DNA of 51,658 nt from an uncultured Leptospirales bacterium (GTDB lineage: Bacteria > Spirochaetota > UBA4802 > UBA5550), in the NCBI GenBank assembly GCA_964654045.1, contig CAZZHU010000001.1, positions 43,572-95,229 on the forward strand. Direction: 5' to 3'. The notes beneath the pieces were generated by a model, which was given only the letters and a program-made list of their open reading frames with translations, ran no database searches and was not told the origin of the DNA. Positions 3,057-44,202 of this stretch are shown one piece after another (position 1 is the stretch's first letter; every line of letters starts with the position of its first letter). Position numbers and translations under genes: made by a program.

Positions 3057-3072
3057 ATCGATAACTATCGGT
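3057..3072 (+). repeat. R1 family copy 1: ATCGATAACTATCGGT
   Basis: Matches 15 of 16 positions of ACCGATAACTATCGGT. It overlaps the perfect 10-bp palindrome TTATCGATAA (3055-3064). It lies in the intergenic gap between convergent genes. Confidence 0.9.
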
Positions 3073-3098
3073 GATGCGTTGAAAAATACACATGCTTT

Positions 3099-3125
3099 TA
3101 AAAGTGATCAAATGTTTACCGATAA
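3099..3125 (+). promoter_or_regulatory. Possible sigma-28 (FliA)-like promoter: TAAA-N15-ACCGATAA
   Basis: TAAA at 3099-3102, an exact 15-nt spacer, and ACCGATAA at 3118-3125. The established FliA consensus is TAAA-N15-GCCGATAA. Only this R1 copy has the -35 element, and no gene lies downstream on this strand. Confidence 0.25.
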
Positions 3126-3133
3126 CTATCGGG
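3118..3133 (+). repeat. R1 family copy 2: ACCGATAACTATCGGG
   Basis: Perfect 14-mer CCGATAACTATCGG at 3119-3132, followed by a run of G. Confidence 0.9.
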
Positions 3134-3159
3134 GGGGTATATATACATTGGATTTCGAG

Positions 3160-3178
3160 TTTACTCTGACCCCTGCGG
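3160..3178 (-). repeat. R2 family copy: TTTACTCTGACCCCTGCGG on the + strand
   Basis: Core CTCTGACCCC at 3164-3173. It shares the CTCTGACCCCTGCGG extension with the copy at 18606-18620. Confidence 0.85.
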
Positions 3179-3198
3179 ATTGCCACATTGCCGGTGTT

Positions 3199-3214
3199 AC
3201 CGATAACTATCGGT
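3199..3214 (+). repeat. R1 family copy 3: ACCGATAACTATCGGT (perfect 7-2-7)
   Basis: Perfect 16-mer, 33 bp from the stop of the convergent TPR gene. Confidence 0.9.
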
Positions 3215-20275: not shown

Positions 20276-20295
20276 TTTTACTCTGACCCCTGCCG
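20276..20295 (-). repeat. R2 family copy: TTTTACTCTGACCCCTGCCG on the + strand
   Basis: Core at 20281-20290, in the 48-bp gap between the crotonase stop and the ygiQ TTG start. Confidence 0.85.
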
Positions 20296-20307: not shown

Positions 20308-22002
20308 TTGTTCATTCCGACAACCATAGAAGAAGCTAACTCTCTGGGGTGGAACCAGCTTGATATCATCCTCATCAGCGGAGACACCTATATTGACAGC
20401 CCCTACCTGGGAACGGCCGTGATTGGTCATGTGCTCATGGACGCGGGTTACCGGGTGGGGATCATAGCGCAGCCGGATACAGGGAGCGGCGTCGATATAA
20501 ACCGCCTTGGGGAGCCGCGCCTTTTCTGGGGGGTCAGCGCCGGGTCCGTGGATTCCATGGTCGCCAATTATACCGCCACGGGAAAGAGGCGCTCGCAGGA
20601 CGATTTGACCCCGGGCGGGAAGAATACCCGGCGTCCCGACCGGGCCGTTATCGTGTATGTGAACCTTATCCGCCAGCACTTCAAGGACACTGCGCCGATA
20701 GTTATCGGCGGGATCGAGGCGAGCCTCCGCCGGATCGCGCACTATGACTTCCGCGATAACAGGATACGCCGGTCGCTCCTGTTCGATGCCAAGGCGGATA
20801 TCCTTGCGTACGGCATGGCCGAGCGGACCGTGGTGGAACTGGCCGGCTGCCTGAAATCGGGCAAAGACTTCCACCGCGTGCGGGGCATCTGCTATATTTC
20901 AGGATACACAATCAGCGAATATATCAATCTTCCTTCATATGATGACGTGGCGCAGGATAAACATGAATTCATAAAGATGAGCAGGCTCTTCTTCGGCAAT
21001 TGTGACCCGTTAAGCGCCAGGGGTATGGTCCAGAATCATGGCGACCGCTATCTTATCCACAATCCCCCCGCGTTGCCCCTTTCTTCCGATGCACTGGACC
21101 GGGTTTACGAGCTTCCCTATGAGCGGGAGACGCATCCCTACTATAAAAAAATGGGGGCTGTGCGCGCCCTGGATACGATCAGGTTTTCTATTACGACGCA
21201 TCGTGGCTGTTTCGGAGAGTGCAATTTCTGCTCCATAGCGGTTCACCAGGGATGCGCTGTTATTTCCAGGAGCGAGGAATCCATTCTCAGGGAAGCGAGA
21301 AGCTTTACGAAACATGCGGGTTTCCGCGGAATAATCGCGGATATCGGCGGTCCCACGGCGAACATGTACGGGATGCTGTGCAGGAACATGGCGCGCCGGG
21401 GAGTCTGCGCGGACAAGCGCTGCCTGGGCGAGCACGTGTGCAGGGGGATGAGCGTGTCCCACAAGAGCCTGATAAGCCTCCTCCGGAAGATACGGAAAAT
21501 TCCGGGGATCAGGAGGGCCTTCGTGGCATCAGGGGTGCGCCATGACCTAATCATGGCCGATACCGGCGCGGGAGAGGAATACCTCTCGGAAATCGTGCGG
21601 TATCATGTTTCGGGACAGCTGAAAATCGCGCCGGAGCATTGCGTGGACAGCGTCCTTGACCTCATGGGTAAGCCGCCTGTTGAGGGGCTCCTGGCGTTCC
21701 GCGATTGTTTCATGCGGCTGAACAGGCAATTCCGGAAAAAGCAGTTCCTCACCTATTACCTGATCGCCGCGCACCCCGGATGCACCCTGAACCACATGAA
21801 GGCCCTGCGCGCGTTTGTGCATGACGAGCTCCACCTCGATCCGGAACAGGTACAGATCTTCACGCCTCTCCCGTCAACCTGGTCCACGGTCATGTACTAC
21901 ACGGGCCGCGATCCCTTTGACGGGAACGATATCTTCGTGGAAAGGGACACCGCCGGAAAAGAGAAGCAGAAGAAGGCCCTGGGCCGTCCCCGGAAGGATT
22001 GA
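20308..22002 (+). CDS. ygiQ: YgiQ-family (UPF0313) radical SAM protein
   Basis: The N-terminal FIPTTIEEANSLGWNQLDIILISGDTYIDSPY..GYRVGIIAQPD resembles the E. coli YgiQ N-terminus. It has the radical-SAM cluster motif HRGCFGECNFCS. TTG start with GAGGAG 7 nt upstream. Confidence 0.85.
   Translation: MFIPTTIEEANSLGWNQLDIILISGDTYIDSPYLGTAVIGHVLMDAGYRVGIIAQPDTGSGVDINRLGEPRLFWGVSAGSVDSMVANYTATGKRRSQDDLTPGGKNTRRPDRAVIVYVNLIRQHFKDTAPIVIGGIEASLRRIAHYDFRDNRIRRSLLFDAKADILAYGMAERTVVELAGCLKSGKDFHRVRGICYISGYTISEYINLPSYDDVAQDKHEFIKMSRLFFGNCDPLSARGMVQNHGDRYLIHNPPALPLSSDALDRVYELPYERETHPYYKKMGAVRALDTIRFSITTHRGCFGECNFCSIAVHQGCAVISRSEESILREARSFTKHAGFRGIIADIGGPTANMYGMLCRNMARRGVCADKRCLGEHVCRGMSVSHKSLISLLRKIRKIPGIRRAFVASGVRHDLIMADTGAGEEYLSEIVRYHVSGQLKIAPEHCVDSVLDLMGKPPVEGLLAFRDCFMRLNRQFRKKQFLTYYLIAAHPGCTLNHMKALRAFVHDELHLDPEQVQIFTPLPSTWSTVMYYTGRDPFDGNDIFVERDTAGKEKQKKALGRPRKD
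20694..20709 (-). repeat. R1 family copy 4: GCCGATAGTTATCGGC inside ygiQ
   Basis: Perfect 14-mer at 20695-20708, in frame as CCG ATA GTT ATC GGC (P-I-V-I-G). Confidence 0.9.
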
Positions 22003-23622: not shown

Positions 23623-23713
23623 GGGGGGTCAGAGTAAAAATTTGTTTGTGTGTAATAGATGCACATAATATAAAAAATGCCCACTTTACCTATTATGGTG
23701 TCAGAGTAAAAAT
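23623..23713 (+). repeat. R2 family: GGGGGGTCAGAGTAAAAA (23623-23640) and variant GGTGTCAGAGTAAAAAT (23697-23713)
   Basis: Read directly from the sequence. The site is 90-180 bp upstream of the ABC-F start, on the same strand. Confidence 0.85.
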
Positions 23714-23784: not shown

Positions 23785-23800
23785 GCCGATAGTTATCGGT
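23785..23800 (-). repeat. R1 family copy 5: GCCGATAGTTATCGGT abutting the ABC-F start codon
   Basis: Perfect 14-mer at 23786-23799. The ATG is at 23802, and no Shine-Dalgarno-like purine run lies between them. Confidence 0.9.
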
Positions 23801-23801
23801 T

Positions 23802-25661
23802 ATGATAAAAATAATAAACCTCTCCAAATCATTCGGCGGACAGTCTCTCTTCGACAATGTCAGTATCAGCGTAAATCAAAAGGAACGAATCGGCCTTGTC
23901 GGGCGCAACGGCCATGGCAAAACCACGTTATTTCGCATAATCATAGGGGAGGAACAGCCTGATTCCGGCGAGATAGCCGTTCCGCGCGGTTATCGCATCG
24001 GCTATGTGACACAACACCTTCTTTTCACGGAGCCGACCGTGCTGGCTGAAGCATGCCGGGGCCTTCCGGAACACCTTCATGGTGAGACCTGGATGGCGGA
24101 AAAGATCCTTTCGGGCCTGGGATTCACGAAGCTGGACATGCAGCGGCCGACATCGGAATTTTCCGGCGGCTACCAGGTCCGGTTGGGACTTGCCCGGGTC
24201 CTGGTGTCGGATCCTGACCTCCTCCTCCTGGATGAGCCGACCAACTACCTTGACATCGTGTCGATCCGCTGGCTGGAAAAGTTTCTCCGCCAGTGGAAGA
24301 GCGAGCTCATGGTCATCACCCACGACCGCTCCTTCATGGACAGCGTGACGACCCATACCGTGGGAATCCACCGTAAAAGGGTGCGCAAGATCGAGGGCGG
24401 CACTGATAAGTACTATGAACAGATTCTGAAGGAAGAAGAGATATACGAAAAGACCCGCGTCAATGATGAGAAGAAGCGGAAGGAGGCTGAGCTCTTCATC
24501 AGCCGGTTCCGGGCCAAGGCGCGCCTTGCCGGCATGGTGCAGTCGCGCATCAAGGCACTGGAAAAACAGGATAAGCTGGACCGCCTCGATAAGATCAAGA
24601 CTCTTGATTTCTCCTTCAGCTATAAGGCCTTCCCCGCCAAGGTCCTCATGACCGTGGACGGCCTTTCCTTTTCTTACGGAGACGGGGAACTCATCCCGAA
24701 TGTCGGATTCACCGTGGGCAAGGACGACCGGATCTGCGTCATCGGGAAAAACGGGAAGGGCAAGACAACGCTCCTCCGGCTCCTGGCGGGCGAGCTGGTC
24801 CCGAAAGCCGGGAGGATAATCTCGCACGGTGATATGAGTATCGGCCATTTCTCCCAGACCAATACGCTGCGCTTGAACAGCCTCTACACCATAGAAGAAG
24901 AGATCATGAGCGCCGGGTGCGAACGTCAGCGTTCGCGCGACATCTCCGGTGCCATGATGTTCGAGGGTGACATGGCCCTCAAGAAGATCGAGGTGCTCTC
25001 CGGCGGGGAGAAGAGCAGGGTCCTCCTGGGAAAGATACTGGCCCAGAAATCGAACCTTCTCCTCCTTGACGAGCCCACCAACCACCTGGACATGGAGTCC
25101 TCCGAGGCGCTCCTCGCTGCGATCGACGGGTTCGAGGGCGCCGCCATCATCGTGACCCACGACGAGATGTTCCTTCACACCCTGGCCAACCGCTTCGTGG
25201 TGTTCCAGGGAGGCCGCGTGACAGTCTTCGACGGCACATACCAGAATTTTCTCGAAAAGGTGGGATGGGAGGACGAGCGTGAGGGCCCGTCGCAGCGGAG
25301 CGCCTCTCCGGCGCCGCGGGGCGCCGACCGGGACACCGTGAGCAAGAAGGACTCGCGCCGTATCCGGGCTGACCTGCTGTCACGGCGTTCGAAGGTAATC
25401 AATCCGCTGAAATCGAAGATCGCCGAGATCGAATCGTCCATCGGGGCGAAGGAGAAACGCCTCTCGGCCCTGAACAATGACATCATCGCTGCATCGGGAA
25501 TAGGGAAGGGTGAAACCATAGCCCGGTTATCCCGGGATATCCACCAGCTCCGCACGGAGATAGATTCCCTGTTTGACACTCTCGAGACTCACATCACCGA
25601 GCTCGAGGAGAAGTCAAAGGCCTTTGACGCCGAGATGGATGAGCAGGGGATCACTGTATAA
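23802..25661 (+). CDS. ABC-F family ATPase (two ABC cassettes, no TM domain)
   Basis: Two Walker A motifs (GRNGHGKTT, GKNGKGKTT), two signature motifs (FSGGYQVRL, LSGGEKSRV), and a C-terminal coiled-coil tail. Confidence 0.85.
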   Translation: MIKIINLSKSFGGQSLFDNVSISVNQKERIGLVGRNGHGKTTLFRIIIGEEQPDSGEIAVPRGYRIGYVTQHLLFTEPTVLAEACRGLPEHLHGETWMAEKILSGLGFTKLDMQRPTSEFSGGYQVRLGLARVLVSDPDLLLLDEPTNYLDIVSIRWLEKFLRQWKSELMVITHDRSFMDSVTTHTVGIHRKRVRKIEGGTDKYYEQILKEEEIYEKTRVNDEKKRKEAELFISRFRAKARLAGMVQSRIKALEKQDKLDRLDKIKTLDFSFSYKAFPAKVLMTVDGLSFSYGDGELIPNVGFTVGKDDRICVIGKNGKGKTTLLRLLAGELVPKAGRIISHGDMSIGHFSQTNTLRLNSLYTIEEEIMSAGCERQRSRDISGAMMFEGDMALKKIEVLSGGEKSRVLLGKILAQKSNLLLLDEPTNHLDMESSEALLAAIDGFEGAAIIVTHDEMFLHTLANRFVVFQGGRVTVFDGTYQNFLEKVGWEDEREGPSQRSASPAPRGADRDTVSKKDSRRIRADLLSRRSKVINPLKSKIAEIESSIGAKEKRLSALNNDIIAASGIGKGETIARLSRDIHQLRTEIDSLFDTLETHITELEEKSKAFDAEMDEQGITV

Positions 25662-37380: not shown

Positions 37381-37863
37381 TCAAATAATATTTTGATAGT
37401 TATCGGTTAATATTTCTTCAAGGTTGGTGATTCCCCAGTAGATTACTAGTCTGCTTGTTCCATTGATAATTTTATATGAGAATGCATAATTATGGAATAG
37501 ATAGTTATCGGTAATTATTTCCTTTGCTTGTGAGTTGAAGATCTTAATTATATTTTTGAGATATTTTCCAACTGCAAACGCTATAATGAAAGAAAGAGAC
37601 ATTTTGCATACCTTCCGCAAATCCATGCATAATTCATATTCATCTTCTCGTAATGTTAAATGAAATGTTCGCCAATTTGATTTGTTGTCGCGTTCTTGGT
37701 ATTTAACCGGAGACGTGAAGATTGACATTTTCTTTTCGTCATCAAGAAACTGTTTTAATAGAAGGCGTATTATGCATGTTTTTGATAAGTGTAATACAAC
37801 TGATGCATGAAATAGTTCTTCCATCGTTGCTTTATTCATATTTATGGTAGTTTGTATCTGCAT
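37381..37863 (-). CDS. Orphan AT-rich hypothetical protein (160 aa)
   Basis: Strong SD (AAGGAG, then 6 nt, then ATG). G+C is about 30% (18 G/C in 37381-37440), against clearly GC-rich flanks. It contains two R1 copies, each encoding T-D-N-Y. Confidence 0.6.
   Translation of the reverse strand: MQIQTTINMNKATMEELFHASVVLHLSKTCIIRLLLKQFLDDEKKMSIFTSPVKYQERDNKSNWRTFHLTLREDEYELCMDLRKVCKMSLSFIIAFAVGKYLKNIIKIFNSQAKEIITDNYLFHNYAFSYKIINGTSRLVIYWGITNLEEILTDNYQNII
37395..37407 (-). repeat. R1 family copy 6: GATAGTTATCGGT (within TTTTGATAGTTATCGGT, 37391-37407)
   Basis: Encodes ..LTDNYQ.. at the C-terminus of the orphan ORF. The 17-mer is identical to 37929-37945. Confidence 0.9.
37500..37512 (-). repeat. 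R1 family copy 7: GATAGTTATCGGT
   Basis: Lies inside the orphan ORF and encodes ..ITDNYL... Confidence 0.9.
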
Positions 37864-37932
37864 GTTATACTCCTTGATAATACCTGTTACATGGTGTATA
37901 ACGAATAGGTGGTGAGATATTAAAATATTTTT

Positions 37933-37945
37933 GATAGTTATCGGT
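37933..37945 (-). repeat. R1 family copy 8: GATAGTTATCGGT (within TTTTGATAGTTATCGGT, 37929-37945)
   Basis: Lies in the 98-bp gap between the hrpB stop and the orphan ORF start, about 70 bp upstream of the ATG. Confidence 0.9.
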
Positions 37946-37961
37946 ATAAAAATATGCTTAG

Positions 37962-40466
37962 CTATCTTTTCCTCGGTTTGGCCTTGCTTGTGGGTTCAGC
38001 ATCGCGTGGATTGTCCGGCCAGTAATGGCGGGGATATCGGCCTTTGAGCTCTTTTTTTACCTCCGGATACGAGCGGTCCCAGAATCCATCAAGATCACGT
38101 GTAATCTGAATTGGTCTTCCGGCGGGAGATAGTAGATGGAGCAATAGCGGCACCCCGCATAGTTTGGGCGTCTCCCTTGCACCGAAAAACTCCTGTATCC
38201 TGGCTGCAATTATCGGGATGTCACCGGATTCATAATCAATTTTTTTATGAGTACCTGATGGAAGAGTGATTTGTTCCGGGGCCAGAATATCAAGACGTTG
38301 TACATTCTCCCATCCCAGGAAATTTTTCAATGCACCGAGGACCGTTTCCTCGGTAAATACGGGACCTGCCGCGTAATTCCCATATGGGATAAGCCACTTC
38401 TTAAAATCTGATTTCAACGCTCCAGGCTGAAAATCAGGCCAGTTGCTCTGACCCCCATATTTCCAAAGAAAAATAGTTTTTGCGCATAAACGCCGTGCCT
38501 GATCATTCCATGGCAAACATTTAAGTCCTTCGCAGGCAATTCGTTCTATGGTATAGTGGCGAAGCTGGTCTTCTGGCGGTATGGTCCCCCTGGTTTCTTT
38601 CATAATAAGATGCCCCAGTCGTACCAGGATCCGTGATCGCGGGGTCCATCCTTCCCATTCAACAAGATGTTCAACTTCCGGTTGCCCGGCAAGTCCGCTT
38701 TCAAGATCACCGATAGTTATCGGTGCCGCCAGGAATATGCGGGCGTCTGTTTCTCCGCCGTCCAGTTCGGCGGCAGCCAGAAAATCTGAATTGTCCAGAC
38801 TGCCGTTAAGCTTTGCTCCCCGGCCGGTGGCCAGAAGCCACCGGGAGAGGGCACCCCCGCCCGTTCTGCGCGCTGCCCGGTCCGGGTATGCCAGGAGGAG
38901 CAGTTTTCCCGCAAGTTCCGGGTCCACATCATCGGCACGGATCGTCCGTTGCTCTGACACCGCCTGCCGGATTATCCGCCGGGCCTCATCGCCAATGCGG
39001 CGGGCGGGCCCGTCCGGCATGATGCAGCGTTCTCCCCGGCTCCATACCGACCAGGCAGAAAGCCTGTCCCGGAAATCAGGGTCATCGCCGCCAATCGGAT
39101 CGCCTTCTTCCAGAATCGCGGCGGCCACTGCCGCCGTTGCGAGCCAGCCCCGTTGAGCCGCGGCCAGGACCATGCGGCCAAGGCGGGGATGTAGTCCCAT
39201 GGCGGCGGCGATACGGCCCATACCGGTTATACGGCCCTTTTCATCGATCAGGTCAAGGGCCAGCAGCAGGGCCGAAGCGCGCTCAACAGCGGCCTGCGGT
39301 GGGGATGTGAGCCATTTCAGGCCAAAGGGCGAAGACCCCCACAGGGCCGTTTCAAGGACCAGGGGCGCGAGGTCGGATCCAATTATCTCGGGCGGTGAGT
39401 ATTCCTCGCGTTTCTCTATTTCGTTCCACCATCGCAGACAGGTGCCCGGTCCCAGGCGGCCGGCCCTCCCTTTGCGTTGTTCCGCCGAAGCGATGCTGAT
39501 CGGAGCCGTGTCCCAGTGGTCCATGCCCGTGCGGGGCAGGTACCGAACCCTGCGTTCGAGGCCGCTGTCCACCACGGCGCGTACCCGCGGAATGGTAAGG
39601 CTGGTTTCAGCAACATTTGTTGCAAGGATGATCCGGTTGCTGCAGTCAGGCAGCGGGTTCAGCACCCTGCGCTGCTCTTCCGGCGGGAGCTGGCCGTGGA
39701 GCATGGAGATCCCGGCGTTGATCTCCGGATAGTTCCCGGCAATAGACTCGCGCGTGCGGTGTATCTCGCGGAACCCGGGGAGGAACACCAGCGTGTCGCC
39801 GCCGTTCTCGGCTTCAAGGAGCCCCAGCGCCTCTGCGGCCAACCGCGCGGCGCCATCCCACACTTTTTCTCCGGCGCGGGGTGGGCGGTACAGGACCCGC
39901 ACGGGATGTGCCCTTCCCGGCACGGAAATAAGGCGGATATCGCCGAAGACGGCGCGTATCTCCCCGGAGGGAAGCGTTGCCGACATGAAGAGTATTTTTA
40001 AATCAGGCCGTAGCGTTTCCCGGCAGTCCCAGGCGAAGGCCAGGGCCATGTCCGCCTGGAGGTTCCTTTCGTGGAATTCGTCGAAGATCAGGGTGCCGTA
40101 CCCTTCGAGGGACTGGTCTTTCTGTATGATGCGCGTCAGGATGCCCTCCGTGACCACTTCAAGACGCACACCCGCGCCGGTCACTGTTTCTGTCCTGGTG
40201 CGCAGTCCCACGGTCTGCCCGACCTTTTCACCGAGGATGGAGGCGATGCGGTCCGCCGCGGCCCGCGCCGCTATCCTCCGCGGCTGGAGGAGAAGGATTC
40301 TTGATCCTGTGAAAGCGGGATGCGAAAGAAGCCGCCACGGCACCAGGGTGGTCTTGCCGGCGCCGGTCTCCGCGTGGAGCAAAAGGGTCTGGTCCCGGGC
40401 GAGGGATTCTGCTATCTCCCCGAGATAGGGATATACGGGAAGGGATTGAATGTCATTTGCCGCCAT
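37962..40466 (-). CDS. hrpB: ATP-dependent RNA helicase HrpB (DEAH-box)
   Basis: 834 aa with AETGAGKTT (motif I), DEFHER (motif II), SAT, QRKGRAGR (motif VI), and an HrpB-type C-terminal extension. Confidence 0.9.
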   Translation of the reverse strand: MAANDIQSLPVYPYLGEIAESLARDQTLLLHAETGAGKTTLVPWRLLSHPAFTGSRILLLQPRRIAARAAADRIASILGEKVGQTVGLRTRTETVTGAGVRLEVVTEGILTRIIQKDQSLEGYGTLIFDEFHERNLQADMALAFAWDCRETLRPDLKILFMSATLPSGEIRAVFGDIRLISVPGRAHPVRVLYRPPRAGEKVWDGAARLAAEALGLLEAENGGDTLVFLPGFREIHRTRESIAGNYPEINAGISMLHGQLPPEEQRRVLNPLPDCSNRIILATNVAETSLTIPRVRAVVDSGLERRVRYLPRTGMDHWDTAPISIASAEQRKGRAGRLGPGTCLRWWNEIEKREEYSPPEIIGSDLAPLVLETALWGSSPFGLKWLTSPPQAAVERASALLLALDLIDEKGRITGMGRIAAAMGLHPRLGRMVLAAAQRGWLATAAVAAAILEEGDPIGGDDPDFRDRLSAWSVWSRGERCIMPDGPARRIGDEARRIIRQAVSEQRTIRADDVDPELAGKLLLLAYPDRAARRTGGGALSRWLLATGRGAKLNGSLDNSDFLAAAELDGGETDARIFLAAPITIGDLESGLAGQPEVEHLVEWEGWTPRSRILVRLGHLIMKETRGTIPPEDQLRHYTIERIACEGLKCLPWNDQARRLCAKTIFLWKYGGQSNWPDFQPGALKSDFKKWLIPYGNYAAGPVFTEETVLGALKNFLGWENVQRLDILAPEQITLPSGTHKKIDYESGDIPIIAARIQEFFGARETPKLCGVPLLLHLLSPAGRPIQITRDLDGFWDRSYPEVKKELKGRYPRHYWPDNPRDAEPTSKAKPRKR
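38445..38456 (-). repeat. R2-like core GCTCTGACCCCC inside hrpB
   Basis: Perfect core CTCTGACCCC at 38446-38455, encoding Y-G-G-Q-S on the minus strand. Confidence 0.35.
38709..38724 (-). repeat. R1 family copy 9: ACCGATAGTTATCGGT (perfect 7-2-7) inside hrpB
   Basis: On the coding strand it reads GCA CCG ATA ACT ATC GGT (A-P-I-T-I-G). Confidence 0.9.
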
Positions 40467-43281: not shown

Positions 43282-44202
43282 TTACTTTTTTTTGTTTTTG
43301 TCAGGTATGAGAACAGACAGCAGGATCGATCCGACGAGGAGCGCTCCCACCACCGAAAGGGCGATTGATACCGGTATCTTGTAGAAATCGGATATAAGCA
43401 TCTTTACCCCCACGAAGACCAGGATGAGGGAAAGGCCATAGTTGAGATATTTAAAAAGCTTCATGATTCCCGATATGGCAAAGTAGAGGGCGCGGAGCCC
43501 CAGTATGGCGAAGATGTTGGATGTGAACACGATAAAGGGATGCTGCGTTATTGACAGGATCGCCGGTATGGAGTCTATGGCGAAGACGATGTCAGTTGTT
43601 TCTATCACGAGGAGGGTTACGAAGATGGGCGTGGCCATTCGTTTGCCCGCTTTCTTGATAAAAAAGTTTCCGCCTTTGTAATCACGATCAACGGGATAAA
43701 CCTTGTTGAATGCCCGGAGTACCGGGTTCTTCTCCGGGTGGATTTCCTTCTCTTTTTCAAAGGCCATCTTGATGCCGATGTAGACGAGGAAAGCCCCCAG
43801 GATGTAGATGGCCCAGTGGAGCTGCTGGATGATGGCCACGCCGGCCAGGATGAAGGCAGCCCGCATGACGATGGCCCCCAGGATGCCCCAGAAGAGGATC
43901 TTGTGCTGGAACCGCGACGGGATGTCGAAATAGGTGAATATCAGTATAAAGACGAAAATGTTGTCAACGCTCAGGGCCTTCTCTATGAGGTAGCCGGTGA
44001 GGAATTCCAGGGCGTAATCCCTGCCCATGTAGAAATAGACGCCGACACAGAACAACAGGGAGAGGACGATCCAGAAGAGCGTCCAGAGAAGGGCTTCTTT
44101 TACCCGGATATCATGGTCTTTTTTCTGGAGTACCTTCATATCGAGGACCAGCATCCCTATTATAAATGCAATAAAACCGACCCACAACAAAACCTGTGTC
44201 AT
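43282..44202 (-). CDS. TerC-family integral membrane protein
   Basis: 306 aa with TerC motifs (EKALSVDNIFVF, LVIETTDIVFAIDSIPA). Confidence 0.85.
   Translation of the reverse strand: MTQVLLWVGFIAFIIGMLVLDMKVLQKKDHDIRVKEALLWTLFWIVLSLLFCVGVYFYMGRDYALEFLTGYLIEKALSVDNIFVFILIFTYFDIPSRFQHKILFWGILGAIVMRAAFILAGVAIIQQLHWAIYILGAFLVYIGIKMAFEKEKEIHPEKNPVLRAFNKVYPVDRDYKGGNFFIKKAGKRMATPIFVTLLVIETTDIVFAIDSIPAILSITQHPFIVFTSNIFAILGLRALYFAISGIMKLFKYLNYGLSLILVFVGVKMLISDFYKIPVSIALSVVGALLVGSILLSVLIPDKNKKK

Follow-up and report, generated by a model that had tools for sequence, protein, structure and literature searches.

A palindromic word embedded in the ygiQ gene of an uncultured Leptospirales bacterium, probably held by selection on the DNA

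In an uncultured Leptospirales bacterium, the radical-SAM gene ygiQ carries in frame a palindromic 14-mer, hereafter R1, and selection on this DNA word at silent codon positions is strongly supported by sequence comparison. The gene lies in a stretch of 51,658 nucleotides (the window; positions 43,572 to 95,229 of the forward strand of contig CAZZHU010000001.1, assembly GCA_964654045.1). We consider it fairly probable that R1 in ygiQ is a genuine lineage-specific word held by selection on the DNA, most likely as the binding site of a ribbon-helix-helix protein family, and that it is paired with a second word, R2. R1 is defined as CCGATA(GT/AC)TATCGG and R1' as its A6T variant, CCGATTGTTATCGG.

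The R1 word in ygiQ and in other conserved genes

The host open reading frame (ORF) belongs to the YgiQ family. Pfam profiles identify PF08497 (Radical_SAM_N) at residues 2-294 of its product (E = 4.9e-117), followed by a radical-SAM core (PF04055, 30.1 bits, above the 29.5 cut-off) whose cluster motif CFGECNFC fits CxxxCxxC. The match to the C-terminal DUF3362 scores 24.1, under its cut-off of 27.6. R1 lies at +387 of the gene (coordinates of all features are given in Table 1).

The original prediction, made from the window alone, described a perfect 7-2-7 palindrome of 16 bp, GCCGATAGTTATCGGC (GCCGATA-GT-TATCGGC), read as CCG ATA GTT ATC GGC (P-I-V-I-G) within DTAPIVIGGIEASLRR. Its position and symmetry were verified, as was its reading in the translated 564-aa ORF, and none of 100 shuffles of the window reproduced the pattern. 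Constraint applies to the 14-mer CCGATAGTTATCGG and not to the outer G/C pair that completes the 16-mer: the 16-mer occurs only twice in the genome, and the Gly codon that follows R1 in ygiQ is GGC, GGT or GGG depending on the relative considered.

The same prediction held that this peptide segment is conserved in the family, and it proposed to test whether close relatives keep the exact 14-mer while distant ones keep the peptide only and to compare the codons with genome-wide usage. The segment proved to be conserved, the 14-mer is indeed kept among close relatives, and the codons turned out not to be preferred ones. The motif P[IVL][IV][IL]GG[IV]EAS is found in 74 of 80 YgiQ orthologues from many phyla. 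PIVLGG is its commonest form (41 of the 74) and PIVIGG occurs in seven; among these seven, R1 is present in two same-genus Spirochaetota metagenome-assembled genomes only. The other five PIVIGG genes, all from unrelated phyla, depart from R1 at two to four silent positions, so that the same nucleotide string was not found in these unrelated genomes. R1 in ygiQ appears, from this comparison, to have come with a Leu-to-Ile change.

The codons were further compared in 30 ygiQ orthologues from relatives, including 17 from the same genus (65-85% protein identity). The exact 14-mer is kept in 11 of these 17, whereas distant orthologues keep the peptide only. One of the six others has R1', a single change, and five, belonging to two clades, have PIVLGG or PVVLGG written with other codons. 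Outside the genus, none of the genes in this alignment carries the R1 word, including the PIVIGG-bearing L027 and L028, which belong to other families of the same order. Silent positions beside R1 vary freely within the genus (ACT/ACC/ACG/ACA, GCG/GTG/GCA, GGC/GGT/GGG). Among the 11 keepers, 17 of the 237 invariant degenerate codon columns hold one codon, four of these 17 being the consecutive codons of R1, and the longest invariant nucleotide run of the gene is exactly the 14-mer, a statistic conditioned on having picked the 11 keepers. The keepers fall into at least five deep lineages, on both sides of the first split of the genus in the protein tree, and their fourfold degenerate sites are 27-40% identical between deep lineages, against 32% expected at saturation. 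As for the codons themselves, ATA accounts for 26% of Ile and GTT for 17% of Val in the genome, which gives this encoding of PIVIG a probability of about 0.011.

The carB gene provides a second case. Its peptide GSGPIVIGQACE is invariant in 28 of the 29 aligned genomes of the order, the exception, from the same genus, having PIIIG. It is written with R1 in 12 of 14 genomes of the genus and in G021, which belongs to another genus and has 84 R1 copies. More generally, the aligned genomes fall into 18 with several R1 copies, of which 13 write the CarB peptide with R1, and 11 with one copy at most, of which none does. The presence of an identical CarB peptide without the word in R1-poor genomes counts against R1 being simply the favoured encoding. 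The carB gene of G017 (47 R1 copies) matches 13 of the 14 R1 positions, and G010 has R1' in both carB and ygiQ.

Furthermore, all seven in-gene sites of the window's own genome (G000; 4.38 Mb in 297 contigs) that could be mapped to the relative G016 persist at the orthologous place. The genes concerned are ygiQ, hypF, carB, hrpB, a Mur-ligase-like gene and two others; at the hrpB-like site, the R1 12-mer is retained. Selection for the DNA word at synonymous positions, as originally proposed, is thus supported by the ygiQ orthologues, by codon expectation and by carB.

Abundance of R1, its association with R2 and its chromosomal placement

Five exact R1 14-mers (starts 3119, 3200, 20695, 23786 and 38710) and four near copies are present in the window, where 13 matches with at most two mismatches are found against 3.0 expected. 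In G000 as a whole, the exact 14-mer occurs 57 times and the core GATAGTTATC 153 times, and the single commonest 12-mer is GATAGTTATCGG (120 copies). The word is strict: its centre is GT or AC without exception in G000 copies, and besides 52 perfect 15-mers, single-substitution variants number 0-1 per core position, except for A6T (19). In-house crude gene calls comprised 3,743 genes, or 85% of the genome; on their basis, 11 of the 57 exact copies are in genes and the 46 others (81%) are intergenic. An expectation calculated from every protein sequence and the genome codon usage is 0.27 for these in-gene 14-mers and 1.4 for in-gene oriented 12-mers, of which 33 are observed; this agrees with the earlier view that a chance origin is very unlikely. 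Intergenic copies lie in 14 convergent, 15 divergent and 51 tandem spacers, these classes representing 0.12, 0.31 and 0.57 of intergenic base pairs. A literature search for the 14-mer found no paper containing it in the library searched.

The variant R1' occurs as a 15-mer in 19 copies in G000 (e.g., on contigs C36, C70 and C141), and it replaces R1 at orthologous in-gene sites of some genomes, such as ygiQ and carB of G010; the site may thus have two accepted forms or two binders. R1 also occurs in head-to-head pairs with their GGT sides facing (G000 C136 6019-6045, C15 37329/37360, C48 16641/16662 and C133 4395/4417). The pair on C136 is a 27-bp perfect palindrome, GATAGTTATCGGTTACCGATAACTATC, and similar pairs 17-22 bp apart are found in G016 and G004. 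Other very frequent 12-mers of G000, namely CCTCACCCGCGC, GGAGAGGGCGCG, AAATGGAGAGGG and GGGCTTCGCCCC, come from a GC-rich repeat family that is distinct from R1 and R2 and not related to them.

R2, GGGTCAGAGTAA, has 67 copies in G000 and ranks within its top six 12-mers. It is found within 100 bp of 30% of R1 sites, against 1.3% at random. An R2 copy lies 27-103 bp upstream of ygiQ in nine of nine genomes of one clade, and it is missing in the five genomes that have no R1 in ygiQ; throughout the genus, the two words of this locus thus occur jointly or not at all. A role of R2 as an oriented promoter or 5' untranslated element was rejected, its orientations being 31 to 26 and its distances variable. 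In G004, R2 and R1 together make up a unit of 43-44 bp, of which 8-10 almost identical copies follow one another in tandem arrays. For example, the unit of the array at L085 1-601 (C5:553200-553800) consists of R2, 6 bp and R1 (GGGGTCAGAGTAAACggccgaCCGATAGTTATCGGTAttccg), and this array directly follows a terminator-like hairpin, while the units at L091 168-598 have a diverged R2 (GGGGCCAGAGCAAC). At least 11 such arrays, of 3-10 units, are present in this genome.

R1 is common to the genus and patchy across the order, with 5-145 exact copies in genomes of 3.4-5.5 Mb, i.e., about one per 30-80 kb. Its placement can be read from one complete genome, G016, and one partial genome, G004. G016 is a single contig (C2; 4,802,620 bp, 4.80 Mb) with dnaA at 1.42 Mb and flips of GC skew at 1.32-1.44 and 3.96-4.08 Mb. 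It has 78 exact R1 sites, of which the segment from 0.709 to 1.920 Mb, extending 0.71 Mb leftwards and 0.50 Mb rightwards of dnaA, contains a single one and the segment from 3.591 to 4.328 Mb contains none. This leaves gaps of 849 and 737 kb. When the sites were grouped in 52 clusters, the two largest gaps together were matched in none of 200,000 simulations. In the same way, a 341-kb contig of G004 that carries dnaA and two other contigs hold none of its 138 R1 15-mers. In a test of nucleoid occlusion on these two genomes, the terminus-side gap (737 kb) was found, but so was a gap on the origin side. A polarity along replichores like that of Chi or of the FtsK-orienting polar sequences (KOPS) was rejected, the orientation in G016 being 24+/22- on one replichore and 13+/19- on the other. 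Origin-proximal samples of G016 (1.20-1.44 Mb) have 42-43% G+C, against about 53% elsewhere.

Within the window, exact copies also adjoin or lie inside other genes (Table 1). The copy in the 23786-23802 region leaves no room for a normal ribosome-binding site of the ABC-F ATPase gene, and the divergent spacer that this copy occupies also contains R2 at 23623 and 23697.

Table 1. Positions in the window of R1, R2 and the genes associated with them
Feature	Position	Strand	Remarks
Three R1 copies between two convergent genes	3058..3213	-	3058 matches 13/14; 3119 and 3200 exact
R2 word GGGGTCAGAGTAAAA (minus strand)	20276..20290	-	in a 48-bp spacer; ends 4 nt before ygiQ ribosome-binding site
ygiQ-type radical-SAM gene	20308..22002	+	564 aa; TTG start after GAGGAG
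R1 core 14-mer in ygiQ	20695..20708		codons 130-134 (PIVIG); 16-mer at 20694-20709
Exact R1	23786..23799	+	ends 2 nt before ATG of ABC-F ATPase gene; divergent spacer with TetR-family gene
Solitary gene of TraY-like (predicted) double ribbon-helix-helix family, candidate R1 binder	37381..37863	-	160 codons
R1 cores of the candidate binder gene	37393-37406, 37498-37511, 37931-37944		37393-37406 and 37498-37511 (read as TDNY) in gene; third 68 bp upstream of ATG
Exact R1 in hrpB-like helicase gene (37962-40466, minus strand)	38710..38723	+	read as PITIG

A candidate binder and the explanations of R1

R1 is probably a protein-binding site that works together with R2, and its regional placement may point to an architectural role. 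As candidate binder we propose a family of solitary genes with a predicted TraY-like double ribbon-helix-helix fold, one of which lies in the window. The AlphaFold2 model of this candidate (predicted local distance difference test score, pLDDT, 78) has a beta-alpha-alpha layout repeated twice plus a beta hairpin. Its top Foldseek matches are accessory chains E/F/G, of 102-120 residues, of the F-plasmid relaxosome (probability 1.0; template modelling score normalised to the target, 0.55-0.69), which we take to be TraY, the Foldseek output giving no name. The family profile matches CopG with E = 0.05, and a Pfam scan of the 160-codon gene of the window returned no match. T5, T6 and H68 are invariant in the family, in two predicted beta strands.

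The family is found in every genome with at least four R1 copies, and the nine genomes without it have no R1; outside the genus, the association gives a Fisher p of 0.007. That this family is the one that binds R1 is put forward tentatively, as a plausible assignment that may well have to be revised. G000 has 14 solitary paralogues, among which no shared neighbour family was found, and the idea of a toxin-antitoxin or operon partner was rejected because no neighbour is common to the 14. The eleven paralogues listed for G016 all lie in R1-rich arms. In nearly all copies with an R1-like core, even in R1-less genomes, the DNY that follows the second ribbon-helix-helix repeat is written GAT AAC TAT (G000, G023, G030 and G036; L207-L236); the R1 core inside the family genes may thus predate the dispersed word.

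The most probable course of events would be as follows. Point substitutions would have written R1 onto the permissive peptide P-I-V-I-G of ygiQ, and selection acting on the DNA, not on the protein, would have kept it there. R1 would be a high-specificity site for the candidate TraY-like family, whose genes carry R1 both upstream and in their coding sequence. Once bound, R2 and R1 (+387) would probably form one nucleoprotein complex across the 5' end of ygiQ, which could act as a repressive loop, a roadblock or an architectural anchor.

Several observations weigh against this interpretation. For R1 in ygiQ, a single gain with two later losses is as parsimonious as several independent gains, even if either history needs selection for the word, and the loss of R1 in five same-genus genomes means that the site is dispensable. 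An R1 core is found within 150 bp upstream of only two of the 14 family paralogues. Six genomes that have the family hold at most one R1 copy, so that the family would be necessary, but not sufficient, for R1. In these family-bearing, R1-poor genomes, no change of the word was found to track changes in the DNA-contacting strands; only the in-gene GATAACTAT (peptide DNY) recurs. One-mismatch variants of R1 are nearly absent, which is unusual for ordinary operators. R1 is also no commoner in promoter-bearing than in convergent spacers, which argues against a classical promoter-operator role. Such a role was rejected, intergenic R1 following spacer length and not promoter content. In the same way, a sigma-28 promoter (-10 GCCGATAA) was rejected: TAAA lies 14-16 nt upstream in 5 of 120 oriented sites, against 1.6 expected, and the flanks are unconserved.

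A broader proposal, which we regard as unlikely though worth stating, is that R1 and R2 constitute a two-word address system of the chromosome arms, read by small dedicated DNA-binding proteins (TraY-like for R1, another partner for R2) and excluded near the origin and the terminus. If so, selection would fix silent and even amino-acid changes, such as Leu to Ile in ygiQ, in ygiQ, carB, hypF, aroA and ilvC, and this uncultured spirochaete lineage would have a new kind of macrodomain-organising system.

R1 could instead be the preferred word of a machinery for DNA uptake or recombination, accumulating by molecular drive wherever it is tolerated, with no function of the individual sites. Uptake sequences are known to shape proteins similarly in Pasteurellaceae and Neisseriaceae, and the called proteome of G000 fits such a process. 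Nearly all permissive peptides are used: five of its ten PIVIG peptides are written with R1 and three with R1', and R1 exactly encodes two of three PITIG and three of eight xDNYR. The two remaining PIVIG genes were compared with the R1 deserts of G016: one is without an orthologue in that genome and the other is located in an arm. PIVIG shows the strongest over-representation among the 27 P[ILV]3G pentapeptides (10 observed, 1.6 expected), PIVLG is absent (1.8 expected) and TDNYR is found four times (0.3 expected). The strictness of the word, common to the genus and patchy in the order, would also agree with drive. However, R1 copies are too sparse to tag most incoming fragments, four fifths of the exact ones are intergenic, they leave deep deserts around the origin and terminus of G016, and they occur in tandem arrays and are coupled to R2. 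For these reasons, drive seems quite improbable.

Still less probable is an RNA element, i.e., a conserved hairpin of the ygiQ mRNA serving, for example, as target of a nuclease or an RNA-binding protein. The ygiQ copy with its flanks can fold into a 7-bp stem with a tetraloop (-11.1 kcal/mol), but R1 is invariant and not covarying, and the flanks that extend the stem vary among relatives. The asymmetric centre would give different loops on each strand, yet the in-gene copies of G000 are 26 sense and 25 antisense relative to the gene, an equality indicating that R1 acts on DNA, not RNA. Moreover, many copies belong to tandem arrays or sit between convergent genes.

Chance, or a favoured encoding of a conserved peptide, has a negligible probability: the peptide region is indeed conserved and PIVIGG is found in other phyla, but the excess of in-gene 14-mers, the silent differences of the unrelated PIVIGG orthologues, the identical CarB peptides without the word in R1-poor genomes and the use of the minority codons ATA and GTT all speak against it. 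Equally negligible is the insertion into ygiQ of the footprint of a mobile element, such as a miniature inverted-repeat transposable element or the end of an insertion sequence: R1 and R2 are dispersed repeats and often adjacent, but ygiQ and carB are unchanged in length at the site, with substitutions only in a collinear alignment and neither indel nor target-site duplication, and the 153 core copies have flanks whose similarity stops at about 16 bp (the GGT(A) side being better conserved than the CC side), which together indicate that R1 in genes is not a mobile insertion.

Relation to known systems and significance

Likening R1 to uptake sequences, Chi and parS sites embedded in genes, as the original prediction did, holds as an analogy only, but the word shows no polarity along replichores, is much less dense than uptake sequences and becomes rare around the origin. 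As the DNA uptake sequences (DUS) of Neisseria and the uptake signal sequences (USS) of Pasteurellaceae, R1 is a short, strict and dispersed word, written in frame on permissive peptides of conserved genes, common to related species and biasing the proteome. It differs from them in being 100-fold sparser, mostly intergenic, palindromic, arranged in tandem arrays, coupled to a second word and excluded regionally from origin and terminus; the density of about one per kb and the even spread that characterise DUS and USS were not found, given the copy numbers and the G016 gaps reported above.

The Noc-binding sites (NBS) of B. subtilis, the SlmA-binding sites (SBS) and the MatP-bound matS of E. 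coli, and the ParB-bound parS are likewise present as tens of palindromes of 12-16 bp, many of them in genes and restricted to some regions. R1 has a different consensus, and its candidate binder is a ribbon-helix-helix protein, no ParB, TetR-type or MatP binder having been identified. The scarcity of R1 around the origin sets it apart from parS, NBS and SBS, and its scarcity around the terminus from matS. Origin-proximal clustering and a match to the parS consensus were not found: a single R1 site of G016 lies near dnaA, and the sequence is unrelated to TGTTNCACGTGAAACA.

The sopC centromere of the F plasmid consists of twelve 43-bp repeats, each with a 16-bp 7-2-7 inverted repeat bound by SopB. 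The arrays of G004 resemble it in their 8-10 tandem units of 43-44 bp, each with a 16-bp 7-2-7 R1 palindrome. They differ from it in that there are many arrays on one chromosome, with R2 in each unit and no known SopB/ParB partner, and G000 has loose R1 clusters only.

With the operators of ribbon-helix-helix proteins (Arc, MetJ, CopG, omega) and the TraY sites at oriT, R1 would share the type of binder, if the candidate has the TraY-like single-chain double ribbon-helix-helix fold that its model predicts, as well as a location upstream of and inside the family's own genes. Unlike these operators, R1 is present as more than 50 near-identical 14-bp sites per genome, some of them in unrelated housekeeping genes; unlike TraY sites at oriT, it has no relaxase or conjugation context, the genes of the family being solitary and without conserved neighbour. 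Finally, HIP1 (GCGATCGC) of cyanobacteria is also a selected palindromic word, found in coding and non-coding DNA across related genomes and of unsettled function. HIP1 is an 8-mer with thousands of copies, whereas R1 is a 14-mer with tens of copies, clustered and regional.

R1 offers a clean natural case of a DNA signal that overrides codon choice and, apparently, amino-acid choice in conserved housekeeping genes, with a built-in control in the relatives that have identical peptides without the word. It points to an undescribed system of sites and binder made up of R1, R2 and, as candidate, the double ribbon-helix-helix family with its many solitary members, the placement on the chromosome being regional. 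Words embedded in this way break the assumption that silent sites are neutral, and they could mislead analyses of codon usage, of recoding and of the ratio of nonsynonymous to synonymous substitutions (dN/dS) in the genomes of this lineage.

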